DNA of 64,000 nucleotides, taken from Gordius albopunctatus (taxonomy: Eukaryota). Position numbers and translations under genes: made by a program. The notes beneath the pieces were generated by a model, which was not told the origin of the DNA, did not search any database, and saw nothing but the letters and a program-made list of their open reading frames with translations. Numbering within the stretch: the stretch's first letter is position 1; each line of letters opens with the position of its first letter. The stretch is taken from contig OZ193909.1 of assembly GCA_964276515.1 (NCBI GenBank), positions 14,942,001 through 15,006,000 on the forward strand. Direction: 5' to 3'. This document shows, in pieces, positions 977-61,428 of the stretch.

Positions 977-987
977 TGGTGCCCCGG
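977..987 (+). promoter_or_regulatory. Primer-binding site (TGGTGCCCCGG), possibly elongator tRNA-Met type
   Basis: TGG-initiated motif directly after the 5' LTR and absent after the 3' LTR. The tRNA identity is from memory only. Confidence 0.65.
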
Positions 988-1201
988 TTATACTCGTACA
1001 AGAGTCAACCTTAAGATTGAACACAACGTACAAAACACAACCGCAAGACTCAACCGCAATCAGACGCGATCATAACAGACGAAATTCGTAATGGACACAC
1101 ACGGGAACCAGCGTTATAAAAAGGTATGTTAATTTATCATATAATATTTTTCGTGATTTTATTAATTTCATTAATTATTAATTTAAAAAATATATATAAA
1201 C

Positions 1202-1429
1202 ATGTTTGGTAAAAGCGATAATCGACTTTATTTAAGAAATTTGTTTGGTGATTTATATCAATATATTGATTACCTTGTTATTTTGATATTGGGCATTTTA
1301 ATTGGACAGGTAATTAATAAATTAAACAAGATAGTGAGGTGCTTTACGTGCGGAAACACAAATCATTTGCAGCGTAATTGTTATTTTAATAATAAGCAAT
1401 TAAGTAATCCAAACCAAAGTAAAAAATAA
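1202..1429 (+). CDS. Gypsy A gag-position mini-ORF: hydrophobic helix + CCHC zinc knuckle
   Basis: YLVILILGILIGQVI followed by CFTCGNTNHLQRNC (CX2CX4HX4C). No capsid-like region. Confidence 0.7.
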   Translation: MFGKSDNRLYLRNLFGDLYQYIDYLVILILGILIGQVINKLNKIVRCFTCGNTNHLQRNCYFNNKQLSNPNQSKK

Positions 1430-2644
1430 TGTGCAATTACTAATAATATAAAAAATAATTGTTAGCACTTTCCCCATAATGTTCGTAACCCCCCTGCTCT
1501 TGCTTTTATAAGGATGCGGTTTGTCGATTAAAATATTAATATATGTTGAATTTGTTATATAATATAAAATATTAATTATCATAATAAATTTTATTGATTT
1601 TATCGCATAATATGTTTATTGTTCAATTTGCATGGAATATATTCATATTGATATGTATAAATAAAAAATTTTTGACTACTAGTGTTGAACTTTGATTTTG
1701 ATCAAAAAAAAATAATAATAAACGGTATCATTAGCATGAAGAATTTAAAGTAAAAGGGCATAGTAAAAAATTAATAAAGGATTAATAGAAATTTTAACAC
1801 GTTGAACAAATTATTTTGGGGTTTGCAACTTTTTATTAAAATCATGATAAATATAGTGCAGTTTGGTACTTTGAAAATAAATGTGAGGCATAACACACTT
1901 AAACGGGACAAATATTATTCTTCTAAAAACACTTTTAATATACAAAAAAATTGTATATTTTATAAAGAAACTCAAAAAGGGTATTTTTCATATATTTTGG
2001 GTGAGTATAAAGAGATGGTTTGTCGAAAGATAAAAAATCTTGGGAATAGGTCGATTGGAAAGTTGCGAGAAATCGTGGTTAAGCCATTCGAAATTCCTAA
2101 TACTCCACCAACGTATATAATTAAATCGTACTCACGGGCGTGTTGGCGATTTAAAATCTGGAATAAATTTTATTGGTTAGGAAATACCAATTTTTGTGTT
2201 TTGGGCGAATATACTTACGACCGTTTAAATCTGGAAGCTTTTATGCACTCTACCCTTTTTAAAGTACCAAAAAGCAAAACCCAGTACAAAAATAAAATAG
2301 GGAAGGGAAGAAATAATTTAATGGAAATAAATAAATATAACAAAAGTAAAATGAACCTTTATTTAAATCCTTGGAAGGGTAGCGAGCGAATTGATAAGGT
2401 CAACACGAGTAATTTTTACAAGTATATGTGTCGAAGATTTTTATTTTTAACATATGAGTATTGGTATGACTATGGAAAATTGAACGAGTTTACAACAACA
2501 AAAACCACCCCTGTTATCTATCCTAAATGTAAATTAACTCTAATACCCATTAAAAGAAATTGGGGAGTGTTTAACGTAACATCGCCGCGTAATCATGATC
2601 TTTTAGGGAATTTTATCAAACAAAAATCAATAAAGAAGGAAGTA

Positions 2645-5512
2645 ATGCAAATTTCTTTTATAAACATGCTTGAAATTAAAAATAACCAAGTTCCCCGCGT
2701 AAAAATAACTTGTAACAAAATTCAACTTAATTTTATATTTGACACCGGTTCATCCAAGACGGTAGTTAATAGAGATGATTGGTTTAGAATTTGTAACGGT
2801 GGATTATTTAAAGAGTCAAAATTGGAAGTGAGGCTATTTAATAACGACAATATAAAATTAATAGGACAATGCGACGTACGTGTGACCGTAAGTGGAGTTG
2901 TCAAAAATTTAACATTATATATATCGGACCTAAGAGTTAATAATATTTTAGGATGGGACTGGATTCAAAACTTTGAGATTGAGTGGTTTAATAAAATAAA
3001 AAACGAACCGACATCATGTAGTGGTTTGATAAATATAGAGTTAATGTTGCAAGTAAGTCCAGGCCCGAAAATTGATAAGATTTGTGCCGAGTTTTCAAGA
3101 ATTTTCAGTAAGGAATTAGGGTGTTTGAAAAATTATGAGGCCATTATGAAAATAAAGCCAGGAGTAAAACCGAAATTTTGTTCAGCTCGAAGAGTACCTT
3201 ATGAATGGCGCAGTGAAATAGAGGAGGAGTTAAACAAGTGGGTTAAAGAAGGAATAACCAAACCGGGTATCCTTTAGTTATTGGGCAACGCCCTTAGTAC
3301 CGGTAAGGAAGGCCAATGGTAAGTTGAGATTGTGTGCGGACTTTCGTATCACGCTAAATCCTTGTATTGAGAGTCTAAAATTTCCATTGCCGCGTCTAGA
3401 GGAGATTTTGGTTGATTTGAATGGATGTAAATACTTCTCAAAATTAGATTTTGTAACGGCTTACCTACAATTGAAGGTATCTAAAGAGATGAGTCAAGCC
3501 CTAGCCATAAACACACATTTAGGTCTATTTACGTTTTTGAGATTACCTTTTGGATTAAGTATTTCGGCTCCAATCTTTCAGATGGCCATGAATTCATTAT
3601 TTTGAGGAATAGAAGGTGTCTTCTATTATATAGATGATCTCTTAGTGGCAGGAAAAACACAAGTGGAACATGATTATAAATTAAGACAAGTTTTACAAAT
3701 TATTGATGACAATGAATTAAGAGTTTCCAAAGAAAAGTGTATTTTTGATGTAAATACAGTAGAATATTTGGGTAATATTATCGAAAATGGTACCATTAGG
3801 CCCATAGAGAGTAAGATCGCGGCAATAAGTAACCTTCGTGCACCAACTTCCAAAAAAGAACTTCAATCCTTTCTGGGATTAATAAATTACTCTGATTAAG
3901 GGTAGAACAATTTTTAAATGGAGTGAGGAAGTGGAAAAGAGTTTCCAGGATTTAAAGGAATGTGTAACTAAACCCCCTATATTAACTTGTTTTGACAGTA
4001 GTAAGGAAACTCACATAGTAGTGGACGCCTCGCAAGAAGCTGTCGGTGGGGCGTTATTACAAGTCGAAGATGGGAACGAAAAACCAGTTATGTATTTTTC
4101 GCGAAAATTTAAAGATACAGAATTGCGATATTCGGTAATCGAGAAAGAAGCCGCAGCAGTCGTATATGGACTTCATAAATATCGGGAGTATATTATAGGC
4201 AAACCTGTTGTGTTATATACGGATCACAAATCTTTAGTATCATTATTTAAGAAGGATAACAAGGAGCTTATGTTATCTACTAGACTACAGAGATGGCTAG
4301 TAATGGTAGGAGTGTTTGAAGTGGAAATAAAATATAGAAGAGGCCAGGATAATTATATCGCAGATACCTTATTACGAATGGGCCCTCAAAAACAGGAAGA
4401 AGATTAAGAAGTAGGCAGCGGATCAATGGAAAAAAACTATAATAACAATGATGCACCATAAATTTTAAGAATATCAGACGGAGGACCAATCTCCTGGATG
4501 AATGTCAAGGAAGCAACGGAAAAGGATATCGAACTAAAGAAATTAGGCCAGTGTATCCGAGGAGAAGCCGAGTGGCCCCTCGTACTAAGAAAGGCAATTA
4601 AGCATAGTGGATGGATGTATTATTAAAGGTCTACAGTTAATTATCCCCAATAAGTTAAGAAATGAGGTTTTAAATGAATTACATAAAGGGCATCAAGGTA
4701 TGGTAAAAAAGAAGAGATGGGCGCGAGAATATATCTGGTGGCCAGATATTAGGGAGGATATAGAATCTCGCTGCAGGCAATGTGAGGCATGCAATAGCAT
4801 AGCAGCGATGCCACATAAAGTTAAAGGCAGCCAATGGGCTAAGGCACAAAATCTGTGGGATAGGGTTCATCTAGATTTTTTCAAGTGTCTAGGGAAGGTA
4901 TATTTTATAGCGGTGGATGCCTGTACTGAATGGATAGAGTACGAAAGGTTTAGTGGGAGTTCGACACGAATTGTGATAAGGGTATTGTAAGGACTCTTGG
5001 CTCGATATGGGTTACCCAAACTGATAGTGTCCGACGGAGGTCCAGCATTTAGTAGCGTAAAGTTTAAAGAATTTTGTGGAAGTCAAGGGATAGGACATAT
5101 TATCACCCCACCCTATCATTCCAGTTCCAACGGGTAGGTGGAAAGAATGGTGGGAGTAGTTAAAGGATGGATTCTTAAGGAGAAAATGGAGACATCCGAG
5201 CAGTGGCAGATGAAGTTAATGTATAATAACGCGGAGGGAGGAGATGGCCAGTCCCCGTCATCGAGATTCTTGGGACGACGAGGGAGAGTATGGCTAGACG
5301 AGTTGAGAAGCGTAGAGGGAAGGAGTGATTTAGGGAGGGCAGCCCGCTTTAAATTAGGGGATACCATTTGGGTTAAAATGTATCAAGGTCCGAGTAAGTG
5401 GGTAAAGGGGTTAGTGATCGCCGTAGAAGGAGGGGTAAGGTGTCGAGTGACGATAGAAGACGGTAAGGAATTTTGGAGGCATATTGACCAGTTACGGCGA
5501 CGAGACCAGTAG
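2645..5512 (+). pseudogene. pol: Gypsy A pol (protease, RT, RNase H, integrase) with stops and frameshifts
   Basis: FIFDTGSS protease; LRLCADFR...SKLDF...RLPFGL...FYYIDD RT; VVDAS...YSVIEKE...YTDHKSL RNase H; H..HQG...C..C and VHLDF integrase. Split into several ORFs. Confidence 0.93.
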
Positions 5513-5539
5513 GGACTAAGGAAATCTATTTTATTACAG

Positions 5540-5887
5540 CTCCAATGTAAGGTGTGCTGGCAGTATGACAGCCATAGAACATGGCAGTTTTACTATTGGT
5601 CGGAAGTGCAGGTCGAAGGAATAATTTGTTATATATGTGATGAGCGAGGAACTCATCAATGGCAGACGTGGCCCTGGAGGAGCAGGGGAAAAAAGTGTAC
5701 AACGAGAAGGATTAAAAAGAAATAAACGAGGGAAAAGGTGGAGAAGGCGAAGAAGGAAGACAACGTCAAAGGTGTAGGGACCCAGACGGATGTAGAAACC
5801 CAGATGAACGCTAGACCCCCAACAAACATTTTGGAGGAAATTGAAAAAAGATTAAAGAATTTTAAACTGGAAGAAATGAAGGAGTGA
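5540..5887 (+). pseudogene. Gypsy A post-pol ORF3 (two Cys/His knuckle-like motifs + basic/coiled-coil tail), probably spliced
   Basis: Acceptor ttttattacAG at 5539. Reads LQCKVCWQYDSHRTWQ..CYICDERGTHQ. Premature TAA at 5723 is TGG in the inverted copy (8152-8472). Confidence 0.55.
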
Positions 5888-6332
5888 AAAGCCACCCTTG
5901 AGGGACAATCGCCCTATTATGTATATAGATTATTTACCCGATAGACCTGTTATGCATATAATTTATTCCCTGTGTGCTGTGTCGTTTATAAAATTATTCC
6001 CCATGTATCAATATGAAAATTCGGTGTGTTGATTGGAAATAAAAGTGGTTATAACGTAAAAAGGTGTTGATGTAGAGTTGGATATGGCTACTGATCCTGT
6101 ATTAGTAGGGATCGGGCAGCATTTATATTTTATAATAGGGGGCGTACTACGATGACCACCGAAAGGAACAAAACATCAACAGGAAACCTTAAACAAGGAC
6201 CAGAAAACGAACGACCGAAATTGGAAGATCCCAACCACTTGACCCAACCACCTGTTCCACCCACCTATCCAACCACTTGTTCCAACCACCGTGAACACTC
6301 AACCAGAAGACCCCCCTGGGACGTGATCCCCG

Positions 6333-6344
6333 AAAAGAGGGAGG
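6333..6344 (+). promoter_or_regulatory. Polypurine tract of Gypsy A
   Basis: AAAAGAGGGAGG immediately before LTR start TGT (also at 10243-10254). Confidence 0.8.
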
Positions 6345-7000
6345 TGTCATATCCATGAGAAACTATCAAAAAGGGAACCAGCCCTTATAAGGCATGGGCA
6401 CGTGATAAGATAAAAAAACAAACGAAGGGAGAGGAAGGTTACCGAAATTTGGGTTGATAGTTAAATAGTACAAGGATACAGCTATAAATTAAGACTTGGC
6501 CTGAAAGAAGTAGCAAAGAGAAGCAAAGATACAACAGACCCTGGTAATAAATATTGAATTGGCACAAGACTGTCAGTCGAAGTTTCAAAAGGCCTTGTAA
6601 AAACCTTGGAAGTGGAGGGCCATTCATCACGAAATTCGCGCGGTAAAATGAGTAGAGAAGAAAAGAAGTTTCAAGAATCAAGATACGAGCCAGAAAAATA
6701 AAACCTATATAAGCCCCAATAAAATCGATACTGGAGAGAATGAGAATTTTCTCACAGAGCTAATTAATTAATTTCTCGCATAGAAAAGTCGTTCCAAAAT
6801 AATCTTTATTAGACTTGGTGTTATTTCCCCCTTGTAATCGCTAAAATTATATCCCCGCGCTTTATTGTGGTGTTAACAATTATTTCTGCGTACTTCAATT
6901 ATATACCTTGTCCGGAATTGTATCATAGTTATTTGAGTGAATAAACTAGTATTTGGAATATCACAGATTTGGTGAATAATCGTACAAATAAATAATTCCC
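6345..7000 (+). repeat. Internal LTR copy of Gypsy A (3'-truncated at the fold-back point)
   Basis: Near-identical to 301-955. Confidence 0.9.
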
Positions 7001-7029
7001 CCGGAATTATTTATTGTTTCTCGTCTGGG

Positions 7030-9773
7030 TATTATTTATTTGTACGATTATTCACCAAATCTGTGATACTCCAAATACTAGTTAATTCACTCAAATAACT
7101 ATGATACAATTCCGGACAAGGTATATAATTGAAGTACGCAGAAATAATTGTTAACACCACAATAAAGCGCAGGGATATAATTTTAGCGATTACAAGGGGG
7201 AAATAACACCAAGTCTAATAAAGATTATTTTGGAACGACTTTTCTATGCGAGAAATTAATTAATTAGCTTTGTGAGAAAATTCTCATTCTCTCCAGTATC
7301 GATTTTATTGGGGCTTATATAGGTTTTATTATTCTGGCTCGTATCTTGATTCTTGAAACTTCTTTTCTTCTCGACCCATTTTACCGCGCCAATTTCTTGA
7401 TGAATGGCCCTCCACTTCCAAGGTTTTTACAAGGCCTTTTGAAACTTCGACTGACAGTCTTGTGCCAATTCAATATTTATTACCAGGGTCTGTTGTATCT
7501 TTGCTTCTCTTTGCTACTTCTTTCAGGCCAAGTCTTAATTTATAGCTGTATCCTTGTACTATTTAACTATCAACCCAAATTTCGGTAACCTTCCTCTCCC
7601 TTCGTTTGTTTTTTTATCTTATCACGTGCCCATGCCTTATAAGGGCTGGTTCCCTTTTTGATAGTTTCTCATGGATATGACACCTCCCTCTTTTCGGGGA
7701 TCACGTCCCAGGGGGGTCTTCTGGTTGAGTGTTCACGGTGGTTGGAACAAGTGGTTGGATAGGTGGGTGGAACAGGTGGTTGGGTCAAGTGGTTGGGATC
7801 TTCCAATTTCGGTCGTTCGTTTTCTGGTCCTTGTTTAAGGTTTCCTGTTGATATTTTGTTCCTTTCGGTGGTCATCGTATTACGTCCCCTATTATAAAAT
7901 ATAAATGCTACCCGATCCCTAATACAGGATCAGTAGCCATATCCAACTCTACATCAACACCTTTTTACGTTATAAACACTTTTATTTCCAATCAACACAC
8001 CAAATTTTCATATTGATACATGGGGAATAATTTTATAAACGACACAGCACACAGGGAATAAATTATATGCATAACAGGTCAATCGGGTAAATAATTTATA
8101 TACATAATAGGGCGATTGTCCCTCTAGGGTGGCTTTTCACTCCTTCATTTCTTACAGTTTAAAATTCTTTAATCTTTTTTCAATTTCCTCCAAAATGTTT
8201 GTTGGGGGTCTAGCGTTCGTCTGGGTTTCTACATCCGTCTGGGTACCTACACTTTTGACGTTGTCTTCCTTCTTCGCCTTCTCCACCTTTTCCCTTGTCC
8301 ATTTCTTTTTAATCCCTCTCGTTGTACACTTTCTTCCCCTGCTACTCCAGGGCCACGTCTGCCATTGATGAGTTCCTCGCTCATCACATATATAACAAAT
8401 TATTCCTTCGACCTGCACTTCCGACCAATAGTAACACTGCCACGTTCTATGGCTGTCATACTGCCAGCACACCTTACATTGGAGCTGTAATAAAATAGAT
8501 TTCCTTAGTCCCTACTGGTCTCGTCGCCGTAACTGGTCAATATGCCTCCAAAATTCCTTACCGTCTTCTATCGTCATTCGACACCTTACCTCTCCTTCTA
8601 CGGCGATCACTAACCCCTTTACCCACTTACTCGGACCTTGATACATTTTAACCCAAATGGTATCCCCTAATTTAAAGCGGGCTGCCCTCCCTAAATCACT
8701 CCTTCCCTCTACGCTTCTCAACTCGTCTAGCCATACTCTCCCTCGTCGTCCCAAGAATCTCGATGACGGGGACTGGCCATCTCCTCCCTCCGCGATATTA
8801 TACATTAACTTCATCTGCCACTGCTCGGATGTCTCCATTTTCTCCTTAAGAATCCATCCTTTAACTACTCCCACCATTCTTTCCACCTACCTGTTGTAAC
8901 TGGGATGATAGGGTGGGGTGATAATATGTCCTATCCCTTGACTTCCACAAAATTCTTTAAACTTTACGCTACTAAATGCTGGACCTCCGTCGGACACTAT
9001 CAGTTTGGGTAACCCATATCGAGCCAAGAGTCCTTACAATACCCTTATCACAATTCGGGTCGAACTCCCACTAACCCTTTCGTACTCTATCCATTCAGTA
9101 CAGGCATTCACCGCTATAAAATATACCTTCCCTAGACACTTGAAAAAATCTAGATGAACCCTATCCCACAGATTTTGTGCCTTAGCAGATTGGCTGCCTT
9201 TAACTTTATGTGGCATCGCTGCTATGCTATTGCATGCCTCACATTGCCTGCAGCGAGATTCTATATCCTCCCTAATATCTGGCCACCAGATATATTCTCG
9301 CGCCCATCTCTTCTTTTTTACCATACCTTGATGCCCTTTATGTAATTCATTTAAAACCTCATTTCTTAACTTATTGGGGATAATTAACTGTAGACCTTTA
9401 ATAATACATTCATCCACTATGCTTAATTGCCTTTCTTAGTGCGAGGGGCCACTCGGCTTCTCCTCGGATACACTGGCCTAATTTCTTTAGTTCGATATCC
9501 TTTTCCGTTGCTTCCTTGACATTCATCCAGGAGATTGGTCCTCCGTCCGATATTCTTAAAATGTATGGTGCATCATTGTTATTATAGTTTTTTTCCATTG
9601 ATCCGCTGCCTACTTCTTAATCTTCTTCCTGTTTTTGAGGGCCCATTCGTAATAAGGTATCTGCGATATAATTATCCTGGCCTCTTCTATATTTTATTTC
9701 CACTTCAAACGCTCCTACCATTACTAGCCATCTCTGTAGTCTAGAAGATAACATAAGCTCGTTGTTATCCTTC
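7030..9773 (-). repeat. Inverted duplicate of ~4251-6997 (RNase H end, integrase, ORF3, PPT, LTR)
   Basis: Mirror-image ORFs: 8512-8886 vs 5138-5512, 9034-9417 vs 4607-4990, 7669-7875 vs 6152-6358. Confidence 0.95.
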
Positions 9774-10933
9774 ACTGGAAGAAATGAAGGAATGAAAAGC
9801 CACCCTTGAGGGACAATCGCCCTATTATGTATATAAATTATTTACCCGATTGACCTCTTATTCATATAATTTATTCCCTCTGTGCTGTGTCGGTTATAAA
9901 ATTATTCCCCATGTATCAATATTAAAATTTGGTGTGTTGATTGGAAATAAAAGTGGTTATAAAGTAAAAAGGTGTTGATGTAGAGTTGGATATGGCTACT
10001 GATCCTGTATTAGGGATCGGGCAGCATTTTTATTTTAACTATAGGGGACGTACTACGATGACCACCGAAAGGAACAAAATATCAACAGGAAACCTTAAAC
10101 AAGGACCAGAAAACAAACGACCAAAATTGGAAGATCCCAACCACTTGACCCAACCACCTGTTCCACCCACCTATCCAACCACTTGTTCCAACCACCGTGA
10201 ACACTCAACCAGAAGACCCCCCCCCCTGGGACGTGATCCCCGAAAAGAGGGAGGTGTCATATCCATGAGAAACTATCAAAAAGGGAACCAGCCCTTATAA
10301 GGCATGGGCACGTGATAAGATAAAAAAAACAAACGAAGGGAGAAGAAGGTTACCGAAATTTGGGTTGGTAGTTAAATAGTACAAGGATACAACTATAAAT
10401 TAAGACTTGGCCGGAAAGAAGTAGCAAAGAGAAGCAAGGATACAACAAACCCTGGTAATAAATATCGAATTGGCATAAGACTGTCAGCCGAAGTTTCCAA
10501 AGGCATTGTAAAAACCTTGAAAGTGGAGGGCCATTCATCACGAAATTGGCGCGGTAAAATGGGTCGAGAAGAAAAGAAGTTTCAAGAATCAAGATACGAG
10601 CCAGAAAAATAAAACCTATATAAGCCCCAATAGAATCGATACTGGAGAGAATGAGAATTTTCTCACAAAGCTAATTAATTAATTTCTCGCATAGAAAAGT
10701 CGTTCCAAAATAATCTTTACTAGACTTGGTGTTATTTCCCCCTTGTAATCGCTAAAATTATATCCCCGCGCTTTATTGTGGTGTTAACAATTGTTTCCGC
10801 GTACTTCAATTATATACCTTGTCCGGAATTGTATCATAGTTATTTGAGTGAATTAACTAGTATTTGGAGTATCACAGATTTGGTGAATAATCGTACAAAT
10901 AAATAATTCCGCCTTTGGGCGGAGGATGCAAAA
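9774..10933 (+). repeat. Third copy of 5866-onward region including PPT and complete 3' LTR (10255-10933)
   Basis: ACTGGAAGAAATGAAGG restart matches 5866. LTR ends ...GGAGGATGCAAAA followed by the TSD. Confidence 0.92.
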
Positions 10934-16818: not shown

Positions 16819-17806
16819 GTGCTTTTTACTAGACTTAAACGCGTGAGCTTTATGACCAAAATATAAGGTAGCATTTTTCTCCTTTCTTAATTTCTAATCT
16901 AAAACAGCATATAGATGCTAACAACGCTGCATTTCATTAAAGCTTCAAATGAACTAATTTATTACAAATTAATTAGTAATAAATATAAATTTGTTATTAT
17001 TGTTTAATCATTAATCATATTCCTTAACTTATTGGCTTTAATTTATTAAAAATTATGCAAATGCAAAATTATAAGTATAATAAATTAAGTTATCATCGCT
17101 GTCCTCATTACAGATTTGCAACGGGCCCTTTTTTAAAGGTCTGTCCGCCCGTACCCCTTTTCAAAACTTCAAAACCCCTACGAGACAGCTCGTAATTTTT
17201 TTAGGCCCGTCCGTAAATCTTTTAGCTCCGTTCGTACCCGTTTAGAAAAACTCCAGGACTTCCCAAGCCCCATCAAATTTTTTTGACAGAACTCCGCTCC
17301 CGGATCGAAAATTTCACTATTTTATTTTTTTACACATTTATAAAAACATCAATAATTATCATGTAAAAATAATAAATCACCAATCATTTCTGCACTAAAT
17401 ACACCTAAAATTTTTAATATTGTACTACCATTAATTTACTTTAAAAATTACATAAAAATATTCTACTTTCAACAATTTACTTTTATTTTATTTATTTAAG
17501 TTAATACACCTGAAGTTAGAATTCAGTATCATTAAATCTAAATACTTTAATAAAATTACATGAGGATATTCAACTTTTAAATAAGCAGTTTACATTGATT
17601 TGAATAATTTATATAAGTTAATACACTTAAGTTTTAGATTAGAACAAAAATATTTATTAAATTATATGGCCCTAAAAATTAAACACAAAAATTTTGGTGC
17701 ATTGTAAATAAGTAATTGAACTTACTTATAAAAGAATATACGAAGCAATAATCTTAAATTATGTAAACGAAAATCTATAGGAAATAGAATAAAAATGGTT
17801 AAAATC

Positions 17807-18088
17807 TGTTGTGAAGGGTGTTTACACTTCTCTATTTCTCCTCCCCTTTCCCCCCTACCCCTTTGTAGTTTACACGGTCGTTGTCTCTCGATCTCTCGTT
17901 GTTATAGAGCGTCAATAATATTATTTATTACGCGAGATATTATTTATCGTATATATATGTTTATCACGCGTTGTGTGAGCGAAAAAAAGCATTATTAATA
18001 AAGTTTGGTCTCATTACCTTTCACATTTTTTCATCATCCTAGTACGAGTAAGAAATCAGTTGGATAAACAGTATTACACATTTATTAA
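17807..18088 (+). repeat. 5' LTR of Gypsy B
   Basis: TGTTGTGAAGGG...ACACATTTATTAA, repeated at 23400. Confidence 0.92.
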
Positions 18089-18827
18089 TGGTGATAGCTA
18101 ATTTAATATTCTTTGTTTAATGAATAATGTAATATTTCTGATTTTTTTGATGCTTTTTGGATATTTTCTTCTTACAATTAAATTTTTCAGGCTGTTTATT
18201 ATAAGAATTTTATTATGCTATTTACTTGATTCAAATTAGTTTTAGATCACGCTGATATATATATAGTTTACTTCAAGTGAGTTAATAAATACATGCATAT
18301 TTGGTATTTACGTAATTTTTTAATAATTTTATCTTTGAATTAGTTTAAATATAACTCACAATTTTGCTATTAGATTTAGGGGTGCAATATATTATCTTTG
18401 AAAAGTTTTGGTAACATTTACTAATTTTGCCATTAGTTTTTTTTTATATTTCGGCTTCGATTTAATTTAGTGATACGTACTATTTTGCTATTTGATTAAA
18501 TTGTGCAATATTTTTGGGCTTCAAATTAATTTATATGTTACAATTTGTTCTTGTTGTATATTGATTTTGATGTAATTTGATATTGGTAACATTATAAGTT
18601 TTGAACAATTAACCAAGTTGTAGTAAAGGTATCGTATATCTTACATTGTTTTAAAGATTGCGCGTGCATTAATTAATTTGCAGAGTAATATTTATATATT
18701 TGCCATAGTTTTTTTATTTCGATTAGGGTTTAATTTTTCTATTGTGGGATATTGCATTAATTGCAGGCGATTAGAGTAAGCATTTAACTTTTTTACTAGC
18801 GTTAATTTGTTAAGCTGTGTAGCAGAT

Positions 18828-19331
18828 ATGTTATTATTTTTTAAAACGACACAGAGGGTGGACTTATATGTGGATATTATTAGAGCGAACTGGTTAGTCC
18901 TGGTTTTATTAATCGTTTTAATAGCTGCTTTGTGGAAGATGTGGTGTTTAAGCATTAGGGTAAATGTAGTAAAACAAGCGATAAAATGCTTTCACTGTGG
19001 GGGACCACATATGGTTAGATATTGTAATAAGAAAGCAGGAAGGATGTTCAAAGGCAGAATTAGGCAAAGTTTTAATAACAGGGATAATGGCAGAGATGGG
19101 AATTATTCTAGACCACTGCCAGATGGTTATAGGGATAAATTTAATAGTGCTAATTTTGATGACAGGAATTATTCGGGTAATAATGTTTCGCATCCCTCTC
19201 AGAATGCTTTTTGTAATGGCAATATGAACAGGGATAGTGAGAGGGGAAATAATTTTAATAAGGGTGTTTCAACTTCGTGCGGGTGTAGCCTGCCTTCCGC
19301 GATGACTGCTAGTGGAGCGGGGGTGCGTTGA
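18828..19331 (+). CDS. Gypsy B gag-position ORF: transmembrane-like helix + CCHC knuckle + Asn/Arg/Gly-rich tail
   Basis: NWLVLVLLIVLIAALWKMW; CFHCGGPHMVRYC; ends in TGA followed by CTAG, in frame with pol. Confidence 0.75.
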   Translation: MLLFFKTTQRVDLYVDIIRANWLVLVLLIVLIAALWKMWCLSIRVNVVKQAIKCFHCGGPHMVRYCNKKAGRMFKGRIRQSFNNRDNGRDGNYSRPLPDGYRDKFNSANFDDRNYSGNNVSHPSQNAFCNGNMNRDSERGNNFNKGVSTSCGCSLPSAMTASGAGVR

Positions 19332-22300
19332 CTAGATGTCAACGTACCTAATTCATCCAGCTCCATTGTAACGTTTAATTTAACAAGCGCTTTGCCCCGT
19401 TTATTATTTGGTACACAACTGCCCACATCAAAAGTGTGGGTGGAAGGTGCGTTAATTAATTTTATATTGGATTCCGGCGCTTGTGTTAGTTTAATTTCAT
19501 TAAAGCATTTTAAGTTATTTTGGCCCTCTAAAAAGATATCCCATTCCCTTTTTAATGCGCGCCAGTTAGATGGTGCGTCTGTCCAATTAGTAGGGAAGGC
19601 CTGTGTGGAGGTGGTGGCTGGCGGCACGAGGTGTAATTTACCTATTTTTATTACGGCAGCTAATATCGCCCCTTTAATGGGCTGGGATTGGTTGCAAGTG
19701 ATAGGCCCTCGTGTTAGGTGGTTCGGGTTATGTGACACGTTAGAAGTACCTACCCCGGAGTTGAAGTTAAAGCGTAGTCGTAAAGTAAGCCCAGGGGGGA
19801 GTGCGATGATATGTAATATTGAGCCTCCGAGTACCAAGCAAGCGACTAAGTCGTGTGCGATGATAAACATCGGGACGCCTGCGGGCTTGACACCTTCGGG
19901 TGCTGCAGGTGTGACACCTTCGGGTGAGTGTAAGTGTTTGGGCGACCTGGGCGAATGGCAATCTAATTTGCGTAATTTAGTGACGCGCTACGCCGAAGTT
20001 TTTTCGGAAGGTTTAGGATGTTTAAAGGGGTATGAGTACGATGTGCTGCTTAAACGAGGTGCCTGTCCTAAGTTTTGCCCGAATAGGCGTATTCCGTTTA
20101 TTTGGCGGGACGAAGTTAATGCCGTGCTTCGGGACTGGGTTGATCAGGGGATAGTTTCGCCCGTTGATTATAGTGAGTGGGCGACCCCTCTGGTTCCGGT
20201 TAAGAGCGACGGTTCGCTTCGTCTGTGTGTAGATTTCCGGGTTACACTTAATCCGTGGTTGGTGGAAATTAAGTACCCAATTCCGCGGGTTGAGGAGATT
20301 TTAGCTAACCTGAGTAACGCATGTTATTTTTCAAAACTTGATTTAAGATCGGCATATTTGCAGATCAGATTAAATGCTCGATCGGCACGGTTAATGACGA
20401 TAAATACTCCTTTGGGGTTGTTTGCGTTTAATCGTTTGCCGTTTGGCTTGAGTATTTCGGCGTCTGTTTTCCAAAAGACGATGGCCTCGGTTTTCCAGGG
20501 TTTGAACGGCGTGTTCTTTTACCTGGATGATGTGCTGATTGTGGGCGCGTCAATGCAAGAGCATGATATGCGTCTAGAATCGGTACTGAACCGCGTCCAG
20601 GAGAGAGGATTACGTTTAACCAGGAAGAAGTGCATGATTGGGGTTACCGAAGTTACTTTTTTAGGGCATGTTATCGCATGTGGGAGAATTAGACCTCTGG
20701 GTAATAAGGTGGCTGCGATTAAGAATATACGGGCCCCGGTTAGTAAAAAAGAGGTTTTAGGTTTCATGGGGTCGGTTAATTATTATCGCAAGTTTATACC
20801 ACATTGTTCGGAGGTGGCGGCTCCCTTGCATAGACTGACGCAGAGTAATGTGCGTTTTGTTTGGGCCGAAAAGGAGCAGTTAGCTTTCGATAAGTTAAAG
20901 AACTTGTTAGGAAGCGATCCTGTTTTGGTGTGTTTTAATCGTGACCTGCCAATAGGTCTAGCGGTAGACGCATCGAATAGTGGTATAGGTGGCATGCTCT
21001 TTCATATTGTTATGGGCGTAGAACGGCCAATACTATTTTTCTCGCGTAAATTAACGGCGGCGGAGCTTAATTATTCAGTTATTGAGAAGGAGGCTCTTGC
21101 CGTGGTTTTTGCGTTAATAAAGTGCCGTGAGTATCTTATTGGTCGAGATTTTAAAGTTTTTACGGATCATAAACCGCTAATTCCTCTGTTCGCGAAGTGT
21201 AACAGTAGTTTGTTGCTTAGCCCTAGGTTACAGAAATGGTTGTTGTTTTTGGGGAATTTTAACGTAACCTTAGAGTATAAAAAGGGGGCAACGAATTATT
21301 TACCTGATACGTTGTCGCGCTTAGGTGAGGATAATGGTACCTTACCTGAGGAGGAATTAGAAGGTGATAAATTTTTGGTCAATATTGTAACGGAAACTTT
21401 CCCATCAGTTAACCTTAAAGAGGAGGTTAGTAAAGATGAGGAGTTGAGTCGAGTTACAAGATGCCTGATTGACGGCGAGACGCTCGAGGAGATTCCTGTG
21501 GGTTACCGTGGGGTGAGGAACGAACTCTGTTTTGAGAACGGTATCATTCTGCGGGGTGAACGCATAGTGATTCCACGAGTGTTACGTCCTCAGGTTCTGA
21601 ATTTATTGCATGCTGGACATATTGGGACGGCTAAAATGAAGGTTTTGGCACGTAGATATGTTTGGTGGCCTAAGATGGGAAAAGATATAAGCATGTATGG
21701 GCGTAAATGCGTTGCATGTAACAAGAATGCGAGTATGCCCAGGCATGATAAAAAGGCGAGGTGGCCTCAGGCACATAATGTGTGGGATCGAGTGCACCTT
21801 GATTTTTTTGATTTTGACTCTAAGCAATATCTTTTGTTGGTGGATGCGACATCGAGTTGGGTTGAATTCGAGCGGGTGTCGAAACTATCTACTAAAAGCG
21901 TAATTGTTTTTTTGGAAAAATTAATGGGCGCTTTTGGCATACCGAAGTGCGTGGTGTCAGATAATGGTACCGCGTTTACTAGTGCCGAGTTTAAAGCGTT
22001 TTGCGATAGGTGGGGCATACGTCACGTATTAACGCCTCCCTATCATCCTAGTTCTAACGGGCTGGCTGAGCGACATGTGGCGATAGTTAAACGATGGTTA
22101 AAAAACGAGAAGGTGGAGAAAGAAGGCATTTGGATGTACAGGTTGTTGCACAATGCTTCCCCTCGTTTCCCGTGTCGCGCGCCGGTTAGTAAGGTTTTTT
22201 TAAATAGGATACCGCGAATACCGATCGATGTGTTCGTAGATAGCGAGTTGACATCTCGTGTATCTGACATTGGCCGGTTTCGGGTTAATGAGGCAGTTTG

Positions 22301-22445
22301 GGCCCGGGGTTATGGCGGGTCTGAAAAATGGCTCGAAGCGGTAGTTAAATCCCGCGTGGGCTCTAAAGCTTACGACGTGGAGTTTACGGCTGCAAATAAC
22401 CATGCTATGAGGCATGAAGAGCAATTGCGGCCGCGTTTTGAATAA
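19332..22445 (+). CDS. pol: Gypsy B Pol polyprotein (PR-RT-RNase H-IN)
   Basis: FILDSGA protease; FYLDD RT; VDAS/EKEALA/TDHKPL RNase H; HHCC and D..D..E integrase (VHLDF, VSDNG, GLAER). Open from the UGA with no early in-frame ATG. Confidence 0.95.
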   Translation, partial: LDVNVPNSSSSIVTFNLTSALPRLLFGTQLPTSKVWVEGALINFILDSGACVSLISLKHFKLFWPSKKISHSLFNARQLDGASVQLVGKACVEVVAGGTRCNLPIFITAANIAPLMGWDWLQVIGPRVRWFGLCDTLEVPTPELKLKRSRKVSPGGSAMICNIEPPSTKQATKSCAMINIGTPAGLTPSGAAGVTPSGECKCLGDLGEWQSNLRNLVTRYAEVFSEGLGCLKGYEYDVLLKRGACPKFCPNRRIPFIWRDEVNAVLRDWVDQGIVSPVDYSEWATPLVPVKSDGSLRLCVDFRVTLNPWLVEIKYPIPRVEEILANLSNACYFSKLDLRSAYLQIRLNARSARLMTINTPLGLFAFNRLPFGLSISASVFQKTMASVFQGLNGVFFYLDDVLIVGASMQEHDMRLESVLNRVQERGLRLTRKKCMIGVTEVTFLGHVIACGRIRPLGNKVAAIKNIRAPVSKKEVLGFMGSVNYYRKFIPHCSEVAAPLHRLTQSNVRFVWAEKEQLAFDKLKNLLGSDPVLVCFNRDLPIGLAVDASNSGIGGMLFHIVMGVERPILFFSRKLTAAELNYSVIEKEALAVVFALIKCREYLIGRDFKVFTDHKPLIPLFAKCNSSLLLSPRLQKWLLFLGNFNVTLEYKKGATNYLPDTLSRLGEDNGTLPEEELEGDKFLVNIVTETFPSVNLKEEVSKDEELSRVTRCLIDGETLEEIPVGYRGVRNELCFENGIILRGERIVIPRVLRPQVLNLLHAGHIGTAKMKVLARRYVWWPKMGKDISMYGRKCVACNKNASMPRHDKKARWPQAHNVWDRVHLDFFDFDSKQYLLLVDATSSWVEFERVSKLSTKSVIVFLEKLMGAFGIPKCVVSDNGTAFTSAEFKAFCDRWGIRHVLTPPYHPSSNGLAERHVAIVKRWLKNEKVEKEGIWMYRLLHNASPRFPCRAPVSKVFLNRIPRIPIDVFVDSELTSRVSDIGRFRVNEAVWARGYGGSEKWLEAVVKSRVGSKAYDVEFTAANNHAMRHEEQLRPRFE

Positions 22446-22494
22446 AATATTAATATGGATATGTTATAATGTCTAATGTTTTTAGTTATATTAG

Positions 22495-23241
22495 ATGGAT
22501 ATAATTGCTTCGTGGTGCCGAGTACGAGTGGTGGTTCAGGCGATCGATCCACTGTACGCCCCAAGCAATTTACACGTGTCGTTTGTGGTGGGTGCAGACG
22601 GTGTGCCCCACATGGTCAACTTCCATGAACAAATCTACCCTCAGGCGAGGAGAGAGATCCGACCCGGGGGTGAAAGATTTGTGAATATGGGTCGACGTGG
22701 CGGAGTGGCTCGTAACGTCGCCCCGATAGTGAGGATCCCGATAGCGAGGATTCAAGAGAATCCGCAACGCGGCGTAGCCGCTGGGCGCCAGGTACGGAGG
22801 GGCGCGGAAGCTGCCCCACCGGCGACGAATGGCGGCAGGCGACGTCGTGTTGCACGGAGGTGGTGTCATGGGTGTCATCGTCGGCATCGTGGGCTGAGAT
22901 GTAACCCACAGATACCGCCGGAGGGTGGTAATGCCGTAGGTACGGTAGTAGAGCGTATCATTGAGGCAATGGACGCGTCGGAAATAGTGGCGGGTGCGAA
23001 CGTTGTAGGGACGGTAGCGCTGCAGGGTGACAGTACCTTGGTACGGTCGTCCGCGGTGGCGTCGCAACGGAGCGTGGTAGCGCCAGGTGAGGCAACGATT
23101 GTCTGTCAGGTGGAAACGTTGTCGTTACAGGAAGAGGAGGCTTTATTGCTTTCTCCTGTAATGGTGGCTCCACCGGATTCGGCAGTTGAGTCGAACGTAG
23201 TACGCCGGTCTGCAAATATGGACCAGCGTGGGGAACAATAG
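22495..23241 (+). CDS. Gypsy B ORF3, Arg-rich protein with CHGCHRRHRGLRC knuckle-like motif
   Basis: 248-aa ORF between pol and PPT, preceded by an intron-like T-rich tract ending AG (22493-22494). No TM segment, so not a typical env. Confidence 0.65.
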   Translation: MDIIASWCRVRVVVQAIDPLYAPSNLHVSFVVGADGVPHMVNFHEQIYPQARREIRPGGERFVNMGRRGGVARNVAPIVRIPIARIQENPQRGVAAGRQVRRGAEAAPPATNGGRRRRVARRWCHGCHRRHRGLRCNPQIPPEGGNAVGTVVERIIEAMDASEIVAGANVVGTVALQGDSTLVRSSAVASQRSVVAPGEATIVCQVETLSLQEEEALLLSPVMVAPPDSAVESNVVRRSANMDQRGEQ

Positions 23242-23399
23242 GGTGAAGCGAAGTGCAAGGCGGGAGAATGGGGTAAAGACATCGAGCCCAACTACGTCGT
23301 CCGAGGAGCTCTCGATTTCTAAACAATCAAGAGGTCGTGCTAACCGGTTGCGCTATCTCATTTGTCTTGCCCCGGATGGAGTTATTTTAAAAAGGATGG

Positions 23400-23681
23400 T
23401 GTTGTGAAGGGTGTTTACACTTCTCTATTTCTCCTCCCCTTTCCCCCCTACCCCTTTGTAGTTTACACGGTCGTTGTCTCTCGATCTCTCGTTGTTATAG
23501 AGCGTCAATAATATTATTTATTACGCGAGATATTATTTATCGTATATATATGTTTATCACGCGTTGTGTGAGCGAAAAAAAGCATTATTAATAAAGTTTG
23601 GTCTCATTACCTTTCACATTTTTTCATCATCCTAGTACGAGTAAGAAATCAGTTGGATAAACAGTATTACACATTTATTAA
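23400..23681 (+). repeat. 3' LTR of Gypsy B
   Basis: Copy of 17807-18088, preceded by the PPT. Confidence 0.92.
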
Positions 23682-24122
23682 TAATTCAGCACTTTAAAAA
23701 CAAATGAATACCACAGGATATACAAAAATTAGATGTTAAAAAAATTAAGCAATTAATAAATCTATATATTTAAGAAAAATCTTATATTTATATAGTTGTT
23801 TGACTTCTAAGGACCTTTGTAATTCAATCGCTGTAAATAATCTCTGTCCCGTTCAAGCCAGTTTATAAAACGTCAGGCCCGTTCAAGCCCGTTAAAAAAT
23901 TTCAGGCCCGCCCTAGGCCGTTCCATTAATTGTTAAGCCCGTCCATACCCGCCTGAGGGTCGGGCTTTTAGGCCCGTCCGCGTGCCGGGCCTGCCCGTGC
24001 AGATCTCTAGTCGTCATTTATATCAATTCATTGTAAAATCCCTGAAGCATTACCCTTTATTTTCTAGTTAATTTTTTATGATAAAAAATGCTTTTAAAAA
24101 AAGTATTAAACATATAAAGAAA

Positions 24123-26848: not shown

Positions 26849-29484
26849 TAGAGGTGGGCGCGGGCCTAATTTTTTATTCACGGCCCGCCCACTCACGGTG
26901 GTATTAAAAAAAATTCACGCCCACTCACGAAAGGCAATATTTTGATTCACGCACGTCACGCCCGAAAATTCACGATGTTTTTAAATTTTTCAAAATTGGT
27001 AATGGTAACTAGAGGTGGGCGCGGGCCGTGAAATTACGCGTGACCCATCGTGTCACGGTGGGTCACGGCGTGAATGTGAAGAAATTATAAATTAGTAGGC
27101 GTGACTGGGCGTGACGGGCCTTTCCAAAATTTTTCATAAATCACGGAGGCGTGAACACAAATTTCCATAAATCACGGAGATTTTAATTTTTAAAATTGTT
27201 TTTTATTAATATAAATTTGCAGATTTATAATTTTAAAAAATATATATATTATTTATTATTTTGTGGGACATTAAATTCGGCGAGATTGTTTTCGGCAAGT
27301 TGACGGGACACCTACAACAACCAATGAAAAATAATAAATCAGTGGAAATATGGTAATACATAAATATATGTTTTATTTTCATTTATCTTTATTATTTATA
27401 GTAATCATACACAAAGCAGTGGTGAAGGAGATAATAATTAAATAATTGAGATGGGCATGATTTCAAAATCAGAGATGTTAATTAAAATAAGAAAGAAAGA
27501 CATTGATATTGAATTTAAAGCTCCAGAAAACAGAAAAAGCAAGATATGGGATAACTTCTTAACAATTTATTATAAAGGTACCTTACAAAATTTTGTAAAA
27601 TGTACAAGTTGCCAAAACGTGATGTCATATAAATGTAAAACAGGAACTGCTAGTTTATTAAGACATAAATGTGTCATAAAAAATACAACAAAACATTCTG
27701 AGTCAATATATAACTTGTTTAAAAGACAAATATCAGATAAATCAAAAGCAGTTTTACAAAAAAATCAGTTATATTTTATATGTAAAGATCTACGACCTTT
27801 AAATGCTACAGAAAGTGAAGGATTTTATAAGCTTGGCCAAGAGTTAATTAATGTTGGTGTTACATATGGACAACAAAATATAAAAGATATACTTGTTAGT
27901 AGAAAAACTCTTATGAATACAGTAACTCCAAAAATATATGAAGAAATTAAAATTAAGATAAAAAGCTTGATCAAAAACAATTACTTGTCCATTACCACCG
28001 ACTTTTGGACAGATGAGTATAAAAATCGTAGTTTTTTAACTATTACTGGGCATGTTATCAATAAGGATTTTGAATTAAAATCATTTGTTTTGGCTACAAG
28101 GGTAATGGATGAAAAAAAACAGGAGCCAATATCAAAATTATAATAAATTCAATTTTGGAAGAATACACAGACATAGAAAATTATTTAAGTAAATGTATAG
28201 TGGTAACTGATAACGGGGCAAACCTAATATGTGCATTTAGAGATGATGAAAGGCTACCCTGCATATGCCATATATTAAACAACATTATGCATTACATTTT
28301 TGATAATTGTTTACATGAAATAACTGAAAATATAAATGGTGTGAAAAAAATAGTACAGTATTTCAAGCAATCAACAGCTAACATCAAACTAGGCTATACT
28401 CTTAAACAAGATGTGACAACTAGATGGAACTCTGTATATATCATGATACAGAGTTTCTTAAAATCATATTCCGAAATTCAGGTGTACTTGCTTAGCAAGC
28501 AAGAATTAAATCGACTAGCGACTATTGATATTACCATCTTACGGCAGTTAGAATTTTTTTTATCAATATTTAAAGAATGCTCGGAAAATTTGAGTGCCGA
28601 TTCTCATCCCACAATAAATGAAGTTTATCTGTGGCGACAAAAATTATTAAAGTTTTGTCAACCCTCTGAAGGGGATACAACAATAATAGAAACCTTAAAA
28701 ATCAGAACTGGATGTCTTTTAAAAGAAAGATTCATCATGCAGCCCCTACATAACGTAGGCTTAATTTTGGATCCCAATTTCAAAAGCCTTAAGTTTTTAT
28801 CAGAAGAAGAAAAAAACGATATATATAAAACTACCATAAAAATGCTAAATGTCATAAAATATGATATGAATGAGTTGCCAACACCAACTATTAGCTGTCA
28901 AAATTCGTCCTACACTCACAAGAAACCTAATATTCTAAATGAAACATTTAGAGAATTTCTAGATGATACTGATGAACCCTCACCATCTATTGAAGAAAGC
29001 TGCGAGGATGAACTTAAAAGATTCATCGCTCAAAAGACAAATAATAATGATAGTATTTTGAAGTTTTGGAAGCATGAAAATTCGTTTCCTTTTTTGAAAA
29101 AAATAGCGAGTAAAATTTTATCGGCCCCTGCAAGTTCGGCATCTAGTGAAAGATTGTTCTCTGTAGCCAATCGCGTGTTGGAGGAAAGGCGTACTCAATT
29201 AAAATCAAAAAACATGGATATTATTCTTTTTTTAAATAAAAATTTCGATTTATAAATTGTAATTATTTTTTGTTATGGAATTATAGAAATAAATAGAATA
29301 AATTCAAAAAAGTGTATAATTATAGGTTACCATTAGAGGTGGGCGCGGGCCTAATTTTTTATTCACGGCCCGCCCACTCACGGTGGTATTAAAAAAAATT
29401 CACGCCCACTCACGAAAGGCAATATTTTGATTCACGCACGTCACGCCCGAAAATTCACGGTGTTTTTAAATTTTTCAAAATTGG
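26849..29484 (+). mobile_element. Rearranged hAT element with three co-oriented TIRs
   Basis: TAGAGGTGGGCGCGGGCC at 26849, 27010 and 29334. 26849-26999 is a direct repeat of 29334-29484. TCACG/CGTGA subterminal motifs. Confidence 0.75.
27451..29255 (+). CDS. hAT (Hermes/hobo-like) transposase; one frameshift at the A8 run ~28112-28119
   Basis: BED finger (W..F...C..C...LLRH.C), TTDFWTD, VTDNGAN, CICH, TRWNS, C-terminal FW...P.L..IA..ILSAPASSASSERLFS. Confidence 0.9.
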
Positions 29485-36745: not shown

Positions 36746-38400
36746 TGTAGAATATGCGCACGATAGAACTAAGAACAATAATGGCGATATCAGGTGATAA
36801 GGGAATATATATATGAATTGGAACTAAGGGTATTTATAAAATAAGAACCGAAGTTTACAAACAACATTAAAATACAATATTAAAATATCCATATTAAAAT
36901 ACAATATTAAACTATATAACACAAAATACAATATTCAAATATATAACATATCTCCTCCCTTTCTTTTTTGGCTTTTAATTATATTTCCTCGATAAGTATT
37001 GAAGGTGGGTTAGGCTTGATTGACAGTGGTACACTTGCACCAGCTCTTGTGTATCTAAGAACATCTTCCTTAGTTGGTCGATATGCTTCCGCAATAGCCT
37101 TCCATCCGCTTCCACTGAGTAAGACCACGGTTCTGTTCTTGTTGCAATGAAACCCTCATGCCAACCTTGACTCGATTTTTTTCTCACCCATCCCGGTTGC
37201 TCGGGAAGGAATACTCCTGCCTTTAATTCCTTGTCATGCGCCAAGCTATTGCCATTGGCTGCAGATTTATGCCGAATCCCGTACTCAAACCCAGAAACGG
37301 CAGTATCGGTAAGGCCATCACCACCCTTGTAATTTTCTTGACTCTCTTTGGCCACTTTCCATATCGGCCTGGCTTCTTCGTTGGTGGCTTCACTTGTATT
37401 TATTTGCTTGTACCATGTCTCGGTTTCCTTGTAGTTGCCCTGTTTCCCATATAAAACGGCTAGATTGTCGAGTGTGCGAAGTATTTCGTAACCAGAATTC
37501 AAGATGGAACCCGACCCATTGCTGCTTCCCGATTGGCCGTATATACTAGTTCCGTTATTAGCACCATCTGAGTCTGCCTGGTTATCTTCGAACCCGAGAT
37601 CACAGAGCGTTTAGTTTTTTGCTTTATGGTCACCCCTTATATGGCTTGCCGCCCGGTGTTGATGGCAGAAATGTTTTCATCGTATTTCTTAATGTCCGCC
37701 ATGTATTCCAAGTGTTTGCCCATTTCTTCCAACGCAGCCACGTTCTGTTCGCTAGCCATCAGCTTTTGATGAGTCTTATCCAACTCGTCTCGTAGCCAAG
37801 CATTTTCTTGACACGTAATCGAGGTTTGATTGTTCAGACTACTTACATTATGAACTTCAACCATTGGGGGAAGTGATAAATTAAAAGCTAAACTCCATGG
37901 TAACCCAAAAAGATGATTTCCGTCGTAACGTTGGTATTTAAAAATATTGTGGGTTTTAAAAGACCTGTCTCCTTGCGTCCTCGATATCTTTTGAACCATA
38001 TGAAAATTTTCCTGCGTCTCCTTCTCAGCTCTTTCTATCGTTAGTGCCATGTCTAGCACCTTCTCCAATGTGAGAGAACTTCCTTCCTTTTCCTCACAAT
38101 CGGGAAAATTTGTCTGAATTTTGAGTTCCAGCCGTTGAATATCCACTCCAAAAATCAGCTGATCTCGAATACGTGCCTCTATGTCTACCTTAAAGTTTCA
38201 ATTCTGCACAATAGAATTGATTTTACGATAGAAATCCAAAACCGATTCACCTTAACCTCTTTTCGATCGCATCAGTTCCATTCTTGCTGCAATTGCCCAA
38301 GTTGTATTTTTAAATACTTTACGCAAAGCCGAGACAATTTTGTCCCATATGGCATCCTTAAATAGTTTTGGATATAAAAATTGAGCCACTTTCCTTAAAT
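36746..38400 (-). mobile_element. Internally deleted Gypsy relic containing captured kinesin light chain sequence
   Basis: gag-like LTLEKVLDMALTIERA; integrase-tail W.EG.I..RT.PWSY.VEADGRLLRKHIDQLR; PPT AAAGAAAGGGAGGAGA then candidate LTR TGTT...TACA (36948-36746). Confidence 0.65.
37260..37813 (-). pseudogene. KLC: Processed, internally deleted kinesin light chain fragment
   Basis: CQENAWLRDELDKTHQKLMASEQNVAALEE..KHLEYM..IKKYD; GYEI-LRTLDNLAVLYGKQGNYKETETWYKQI; PIWKVA; EYG..HK. Confidence 0.85.
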
Positions 38401-60002: not shown

Positions 60003-60041
60003 ATATGTTAGGACGGTAGCGGCGACCCTCGGCAGCGGTGA

Positions 60042-61154: not shown

Positions 61155-61218
61155 TTTGCTCAACGAATGTGTTAATTAATTATGTGACATATCGCAATTA
61201 ATCTGCTCAGCAAATGTA

Positions 61219-61428
61219 TTGGAATGGTGGAAAATGAATGAGACACGCTTTCCGACACTCAGCAAAATGGCTAGAGACTATTTAGGGCAGTCCACCACTT
61301 CAGTTCCGGGTGAACGAATGTTTTCCTTGGCAGGAAATATTTTTACAGCTAGAAGAAATCGGTTGTCCTCAAATACGATTACCCAAATTATGTGTTTAAA
61401 GTCTTGGGGAAATGTTAATTTAAAATAA
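61219..61428 (+). pseudogene. hAT transposase C-terminal dimerisation-domain fragment (repeated at 63751-63960)
   Basis: LEWWK.NE.RFP.LS.MARDYL....TSVPGERMFSLAG....RRNRL...I..IMCLKSW. Confidence 0.85.

Follow-up and report, generated by a model that had tools for sequence, protein, structure and literature searches.

A protein capsid is regarded as the core shared by retrotransposons with long terminal repeats (LTRs) and by retroviruses and has been traced to a common ancestor, as set out in the available sections of one account (PMC6525542). Murine leukemia virus (MuLV) expresses gag-pol by readthrough, according to the accessible part of PMC5009743, and UGA-CUAG is reported in the accessible part of PMC4132726 to drive readthrough in alphaviruses and mammalian genes, UGA-CUA alone giving 1.5%. 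For third open reading frames (ORF3s) of LTR elements, spliced messages are given as typical in the sections available of PMC5408684. A comparative genome paper on nematomorphs treats Gypsy elements, in its accessible text, at the superfamily level only. Here, we describe element B, a Ty3/Gypsy retrotransposon located in a 64,000-nt stretch of the Gordius albopunctatus genome (GCA_964276515.1, contig OZ193909.1, positions 14,942,001 to 15,006,000, forward strand), which is called the window and numbered from its first letter. The gag of element B is reduced to a predicted transmembrane helix, one zinc knuckle and an Asn-rich tail with no detectable capsid homology; this anatomy is present across its family and recurs in a second element of the window, element A. 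It is likely that the lineage has no canonical capsid of its own.

Element B spans 17807-23682 and is composed of the following parts.

17807-18089, plus strand: 5' LTR, 283 nt, whose final base may belong to the primer-binding site (PBS)
18089-18100, plus strand: putative PBS, starting with TGG and abutting the 5' LTR, judged by position, with no matched tRNA
18090-18827, plus strand: non-coding T-rich leader, probably holding an intron, with a donor-like site after 18276, an acceptor-like site at 18799 and seven upstream ATGs
18828-19331, plus strand: ORF1, the reduced gag, 167 aa plus TGA
18891-18944, plus strand: predicted transmembrane helix, ORF1 residues 22-39, hydropathy 2.66
18987-19025, plus strand: CX2CX3HX4C zinc knuckle followed by a basic patch, ORF1 residues 54-66
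19068-19265, plus strand: Asn-rich low-complexity tail of ORF1, 16 N in 66 aa, 52% N/Q/G/S/Y
19329-19335, plus strand: TGA-CTAG at the boundary between ORF1 and pol, which share one frame; candidate readthrough signal
19332-22445, plus strand: pol, intact, encoding protease (PR), reverse transcriptase (RT), RNase H and integrase (IN) in a single open frame
22495-23241, plus strand: ORF3, 248 aa in the window copy, Arg-rich, with an AG ahead of its ATG
23385-23399, plus strand: putative polypurine tract (PPT), purine-rich, ahead of the 3' LTR, judged by position
23400-23682, plus strand: 3' LTR, identical to the 5' LTR

A preliminary description of this locus had reported identical LTRs with an intact pol, about 700 nt of T-rich sequence without a sense ORF, and, as the only substantial sense ORF between PBS and protease, one that joins a hydrophobic stretch of about 20 residues to a single CCHC knuckle and a low-complexity tail. 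All of this was confirmed. The two LTRs of 283 nt each are 100% identical, and pol runs unbroken through 1037 codons in the order PR, RT, RNase H, integrase zinc finger and integrase core. The leader is 738 nt long and 47% T, and stops crowd its three sense frames. From the putative PBS at 18089 to pol, 18780-19331 (ATG 18828, 167 aa) is the only sense ORF longer than 60 aa, and it carries the hydrophobic stretch, knuckle and tail at the positions listed above. The Ty3/Gypsy features, namely two LTRs, a putative PBS and PPT and the PR-RT-RNase H-IN order, are all present, and B is a recently active Mag-type Gypsy element, young and multi-copy. It was not filed as a canonical Ty3/Gypsy member because the capsid test fails by sequence. 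The candidate target-site duplication, AAATC at 17802-17806 and AATTC at 23683-23687, matches in 4 of 5 positions at best, if it is one at all, and no empty insertion site of B was found within the window. The LTR terminus is AA or AT, not CA, the duplication being imperfect despite the identical LTRs, and B is inserted within an AT-rich high-copy repeat.

The capsid was searched for with a Gag profile built from 35 of the 50 pol relatives (those of at least 1250 aa with a protease motif in range), which was run against the six-frame translation of the window, stops being replaced by X. Its coverage of the capsid rests on PF03732 touching residues 67-136 of the relative P0004 (E 0.0011, below cut-off) and on precomputed PF03732 assignments in 4 of the 50 pol matches. 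The profile matched B at the knuckle alone (E 0.06), and no capsid homology was found by it in ORF1, ORF3, the leader frames or the minus strand of B, nor in the frames of A. The following remnant was recovered in the same search.

38000-38420, minus strand: broken canonical capsid-type Mag gag remnant, Gag profile E 1.8e-19, profile positions 57-187

This remnant is a positive control, and its sequence indicates that capsid-type Mag elements exist or existed in the genome. Profile-profile comparison aligned only the knuckle for ORF1 of both A and B, and nothing for ORF3 or for the region ahead of the protease of A. Of 38 long relatives, 37 have a recognizable knuckle, and in all 37 of these canonical relatives the first one lies at residue 197-346, as compared with residue 54 in B, where only 53 residues precede it, and residue 47 in A. 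More than 100 capsid-region profile positions are covered by 42 of the 50 pol relatives, a count that is partly circular because 35 of these built the profile; the other eight are shorter entries of 662-1028 aa, including the Gordionus protein P0001. AlphaFold without alignments gave low-confidence models of ORF3 and of the pre-protease domain of A (mean predicted local distance difference test scores of 35 and 30), for which Foldseek returned no match, the models being too poor for inference. The earlier claim that gag lacks a capsid gained sequence-level support from ORF1, ORF3 and the leader frames.

ORF1 begins with 21 polar or mixed residues ahead of the hydrophobic stretch. Its best 19-residue mean on the Kyte-Doolittle scale is 2.66, and the corresponding value upstream of the first knuckle was 1.64 or lower in 37 of 37 canonical knuckle-bearing relatives. 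The CX2CX3HX4C spacing of B is shared by 14 of these 37. We infer that ORF1 may be a membrane protein with a single pass and its knuckle on the cytoplasmic side. An MGxxxS/T myristoylation motif is absent from ORF1 of B. The only PDB sequence match for the predicted helix was the membrane helix of integrin alpha-1, which is not significant (E 1.9). No homologue was found in a word-indexed protein database searched at near lengths only, and a length-free search gave three matches, two to the knuckle and one to an unrelated repeat protein. The nearest ESM Atlas clusters were small viral hypothetical proteins (0.76), which were taken as a lead only.

The heptamer TGACTAG occurs at only 2 of the 1933 TGA triplets in the window, one of which is the ORF1/pol junction of B. 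No unusual stimulatory RNA fold was detected downstream of the ORF1 stop (z 0.2 and -1.2), and a donor-like site lies close to this stop, after 19322. A regulated TGA-CTAG junction would identify ORF1 as the working gag of B. This junction, together with a knuckle in ORF3 and the recurrence of the layout in element A, both described below, goes beyond the preliminary description.

Presence across the family was examined by comparing 4 of 7 listed read runs over 17300-23399; all were compared as contigs, none was recorded as RNA, and the window itself may derive from the source of run X1 or X2. The X1 contig depth was 4024 over ORF1, 4014-4649 over pol and 3766 over ORF3, versus 137 for a flank contig, and in X2 it was 12632 for an ORF1 contig versus 497. 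This gives a rough hint of about 25-30 copies of B, contig depth not being a copy number. Run X4, from a second organism, showed depth in 30 of 30 bins. Because leader, ORF1 and pol occur at like depth in one organism and all bins are covered in a second, the helix and knuckle gag is the normal form of the family. Relatives of B with a full capsid-bearing gag, which the preliminary description had named as evidence against its claim, left no sign in the read contigs of being a commoner form. Loose ends of X1 contigs start behind 18088, at the edge of the 5' LTR. An X1 contig across ORF1 (18754-19440) differs in two letters, one of them at 18835, with no gap, and the stop at 19329 is probably, not certainly, common to the X1 copies. 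No indel fell in ORF1 among the 12 listed of 104, and those of the leader, as at 18438, 18515, 18708 and 18739, were mostly non-triplet. Among the differences between runs (40 of 835, chosen by the tool), none of the six in ORF1 touches the helix or the knuckle ligands. Between the window copy itself and the main X1 contigs there is a 3-nt gap in RT (20201) and a 1-nt difference in ORF3 (23040). No relatives were found among viral contigs; 10 metagenome loci at 25-46% identity fell outside the clade of A and B and were not used.

Element A occupies 301-7010, its LTRs starting at 301 and 6345 and being about 97% alike, and its pol is broken. Its ORF1 and 3' ORFs are as follows.

1202-1429, plus strand: ORF1 of element A, 75 aa, with a short N-terminus, a hydrophobic helix at 1262-1318 and a CCHC knuckle at 1340-1381
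5513-5887, plus strand: 3' ORF of element A behind pol, with no ATG before its knuckle-like motifs and one stop in this copy
8155-8511, minus strand: the same 3' ORF in a second, inverted copy of A, with an open frame of 119 codons and CX2CX5HX4C at 8478

The helix of A reaches a hydropathy of 1.93, and its knuckle passes the PF00098 cut-off. The pol pieces of A and B (RT, RNase H and integrase) share 40-52% identity, and a global alignment of their pre-knuckle regions scored better than 4997 of 5000 shuffles; homology of the two helices is plausible, not proven. A, B and P0001, which is the best pol match (47%) and whose gene model has neither knuckle nor capsid, form one clade in the RT tree (Shimodaira-Hasegawa-like approximate likelihood ratio test, 100) and in the integrase tree (95). 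The former was a quick tree of 51 rows, and the latter a FastTree of 35 rows from which matches covering less than 80% had been dropped; both were rooted at the midpoint and held no named Mag reference. RT and integrase of A and B group with Mag-type elements, as judged from the database label 'K02A2.6-like', which we take to denote the Mag clade. The distance between A and B on the RT tree is about 1.1 changes per site. The simplest reading, with a midpoint root only, is that the capsid was lost on the stem of the clade of A, B and P0001. After A comes an inverted partial copy (7027-9773, 98%), which is followed by a partial copy ending in an LTR (9774-10910), and the whole of 301-10910 is a near-palindrome with a 26-nt center. 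Ahead of the protease of A, 1778-2680 holds about 300 open codons of roughly 30% GC with no Pfam or Gag-profile match. A decayed relative of B pol at 55057-56938 (minus strand) adjoins the start of a host gene (ATG 57319, very short introns), which presumably resembles the GET3/ASNA1 ATPase, judged by a sequence motif. It was rejected as a third example of the layout, its 5' part being missing.

A second knuckle of B, again CX2CX3HX4C, is located in ORF3 at 22864-22902, and this motif arose in 0 of 20000 shuffles. Across the six frames of the window, CX2CX3-5HX4C motifs number four: one in each ORF1 of the two elements, one in ORF3 of B and one in the 3' ORF that belongs to A's second copy. 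The paired adjacent knuckles of Mag Gag thus appear, from these motifs, to have been redistributed, one to the helix protein before pol and more to the proteins behind pol. The reading frame of ORF3 varies among copies beyond codon 182, as with the 1-nt gap at 23040 mentioned above; in its first 181 codons, 2 of the 5 listed differences change an amino acid and 3 are silent. No ORF3 homologue was found in the word-indexed database (near lengths only), and ESM Atlas gave no usable match. An AG in an AT-rich context precedes the 3' ORFs of both A and B, and each leader has one strong donor-like site. The donor-like sites were scored with our own approximate matrix, at whose cut-off pol holds seven, and neither 3' AG met the pyrimidine filter of the script. 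A joint in X2 (23012-23333) with GT..AG ends was not accepted as a splice, having a 4-base overlap.

Since helix, knuckle and tail are all that remains of this gag, with no capsid detected, reverse transcription would likely take place in a membrane-anchored RNA-protein patch or vesicle. We tentatively favor the reading that this Mag-type lineage lost its capsid and replicates with a membrane-anchored nucleocapsid. A fuller version, held a little more loosely still, is that an old and still active Ty3/Gypsy branch gave up its capsid and carries out autonomous reverse transcription on membranes, by means of one nucleocapsid that spans the membrane and holds Pol there through readthrough, and of another whose ORF lies behind pol; it may travel in membrane vesicles. 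In such a cycle, splicing would remove the leader intron, and the ORF1 protein would be abundant, crossing the membrane once and exposing its knuckle to the cytoplasm. UGA-CUAG would be passed by a few per cent of ribosomes, which would place Gag-Pol on the same membrane, from which the protease would then release Pol. The ORF1 knuckle would bind genomic RNA, and, as the prion-like domain of Ty1 suggests by analogy, the Asn-rich tail may gather the protein into clusters. ORF3, whose RNA is likely spliced, would encode another basic protein with a knuckle, to condense the RNA and act as its chaperone, so that membrane and condensate would take the capsid's role of concentrating RNA, primer and RT. 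A membrane nucleocapsid in place of the capsid had already been proposed in the preliminary description; of this, the absence of the capsid by sequence stands, the layout is now seen to recur in A, and membrane insertion stays a prediction.

Several observations weigh against this reading. The hydropathy of B was reached by 283 of 3004 (9%) simulated open frames of leader-like base composition, and that of A by 14%; because of the former figure, the helix of B by itself is not far beyond chance. A local alignment of A and B was not significant (262 of 5000 shuffles equal or better). No readthrough junction is visible in element A, whose knuckle and protease are separated by about 400 codons without assigned similarity. 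The stretch 18694-18838, which includes the ATG of ORF1, is skipped or replaced in one X4 contig, and the differences listed in other runs change an amino acid in 6 of 6 cases in ORF1 versus 5 of 11 in pol. The capsid-type remnant at 38000-38420 also counts here, in that it keeps a helper possible.

Such a helper belongs to the strongest rival, which we regard as unlikely: B would supply its own enzymes and nucleocapsid and borrow particles from a canonical Mag element, the helix perhaps tethering it at the helper's assembly site. Non-autonomous LTR elements are common, which speaks for this possibility, as does the remnant on the minus strand; however, that sole helper candidate in the window is broken. 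Also in its favor, capsid assembly is the conserved Ty3/Gypsy route in the available sections of PMC6525542; against it, a Gag-Pol without a capsid domain would miss the usual handle for co-assembly. Roughly 1.1 changes per RT site separate A from B, and the layout has persisted over this distance, which would call for a lasting helper.

A shell protein whose fold escapes sequence searches is improbable. It would be ORF3, perhaps joined in frame to ORF1 by splicing that removes pol as an intron, or the 290-residue pre-protease domain of A. In B the donor-like sites after 19322 and 18959, and in A those after 1123 and 1309, share phase 0 with the AG before the 3' ORF, but their scores come from the rough matrix noted above, with its seven sites in pol. 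Also in favor, ORF3 has no homologue, the domain of A has no Pfam match, and three of the five ORF3 differences listed before codon 182 are silent. Against this, ORF3 is largely Arg/Gly-rich with little helix bundle in its low-confidence model, its last third shifts frame among copies, the 3' ORF of A has only about 120 residues, and the pre-protease domain of A has no counterpart in B.

It is similarly improbable that the helix is a by-product of a T-rich intron end, the true reduced Gag being a small soluble nucleocapsid made by splicing or from a downstream start, capsid-less and not membrane-bound. Residue 38 of ORF1 is indeed a second ATG, and in A a CAG at 1309, immediately after the helix, could serve as acceptor for an ATG-bearing leader exon that ends at 1123 in the same frame; no ATG-led open exon, however, precedes any leader donor of B. 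Chance hydropathy of this order occurs in 9-16% of open frames (leader-like or A's own composition), yet an ATG-led open frame runs through the helix in both elements, and open frame and helix arose jointly in only 283 (B) and 366 (A) of 200000 simulations. The leader has 47% T but the pre-knuckle part of ORF1 only 36%, and with the composition of the latter only 21 of 1479 open frames attain the value of B. Finally, a single deleted copy or an assembly artefact was rejected by the read-contig depth and the recurrence of the layout in A, and a capsid on the minus strand of B by the lack of any match in those frames.

A capsid-free lineage that has spread recently and persisted over deep divergence would offer a case in nature in which to ask whether reverse transcription of the LTR type depends on a protein shell, and its two small proteins and readthrough junction would be separately assayable parts. 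Even with a borrowed capsid, B, in keeping all its enzymes and parasitizing the shell only, would show an unusual kind of non-autonomy.

Other elements of the window were also noted. On the minus strand at 36975-38420, the Mag gag remnant is followed by kinesin light chain-like segments (weak TPR, PF13374 E 2e-4, below cut-off), including what we take to be the coiled coil of kinesin light chain, and then by an end like an integrase C-terminus; this is possibly a retroelement with a captured host mRNA. Two near-identical tandem units at 59229-63707, 2532 nt apart, have a gag-like ORF on the plus strand and an RT ORF on the opposite strand, and we presume that they may be DIRS-like. A hAT transposase (PF05699) lies at 27442-29255, and at 43110-46257 there is a non-LTR RT element whose frame is broken once.

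No published account of a capsid-less helix and knuckle layout was found in the open-licence text of PubMed Central and bioRxiv. Among known systems, B is closest to Mag-clade Ty3/Gypsy elements, with which it shares LTRs, the PR-RT-RNase H-IN order, the nearest RT and integrase relatives (31-38% identity) and the CX2CX3HX4C spacing. It differs from them in having no capsid region before the knuckle, one gag knuckle instead of two adjacent ones, a long T-rich leader and a 3' ORF with a further knuckle. Non-autonomous LTR elements, such as TRIM and LARD, lose pol or all coding capacity, and TR-GAG elements reportedly miss part of the coding set, whereas B keeps an intact 1037-codon pol and loses the capsid only. 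Bdelloid Mag elements, in the available part of PMC5408684, carry a pair of neighboring knuckles in Gag and read from gag into pol in one continuous frame without frameshift, whereas B has one knuckle and an in-frame TGA. As in the gammaretroviral readthrough described in the accessible part of PMC5009743, pol of B lies in the gag frame behind a single stop, and its UGA-CUAG is exactly the context given for alphaviruses and mammalian genes in that of PMC4132726. The MuLV stop, in contrast, is UAG, and B, with no detected stimulatory fold, remains a candidate for readthrough. The Ty1 Gag prion-like domain is a low-complexity segment, and the tail of B could likewise seed RNA-protein foci; the Ty1 domain aids capsid assembly, whereas B has no detected capsid and its prion-like tail is a guess from composition (bioRxiv 10.1101/2023.02.27.530227, available sections). 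The small ORF 2 (sORF2) of the MDG1 group and the FAST (fusion-associated small transmembrane) proteins of reoviruses resemble ORF1, by its hydropathy and charge only, in small size, a short N-terminus, one hydrophobic helix with a basic patch behind it and, for sORF2, an upstream position in an LTR element (bioRxiv 10.1101/2025.03.14.642691, available sections). In those same sections sORF2 accompanies an intact Gag that forms capsids, and no zinc knuckle is mentioned for it, whereas in B helix and knuckle belong to one protein, which putative readthrough would join to pol.

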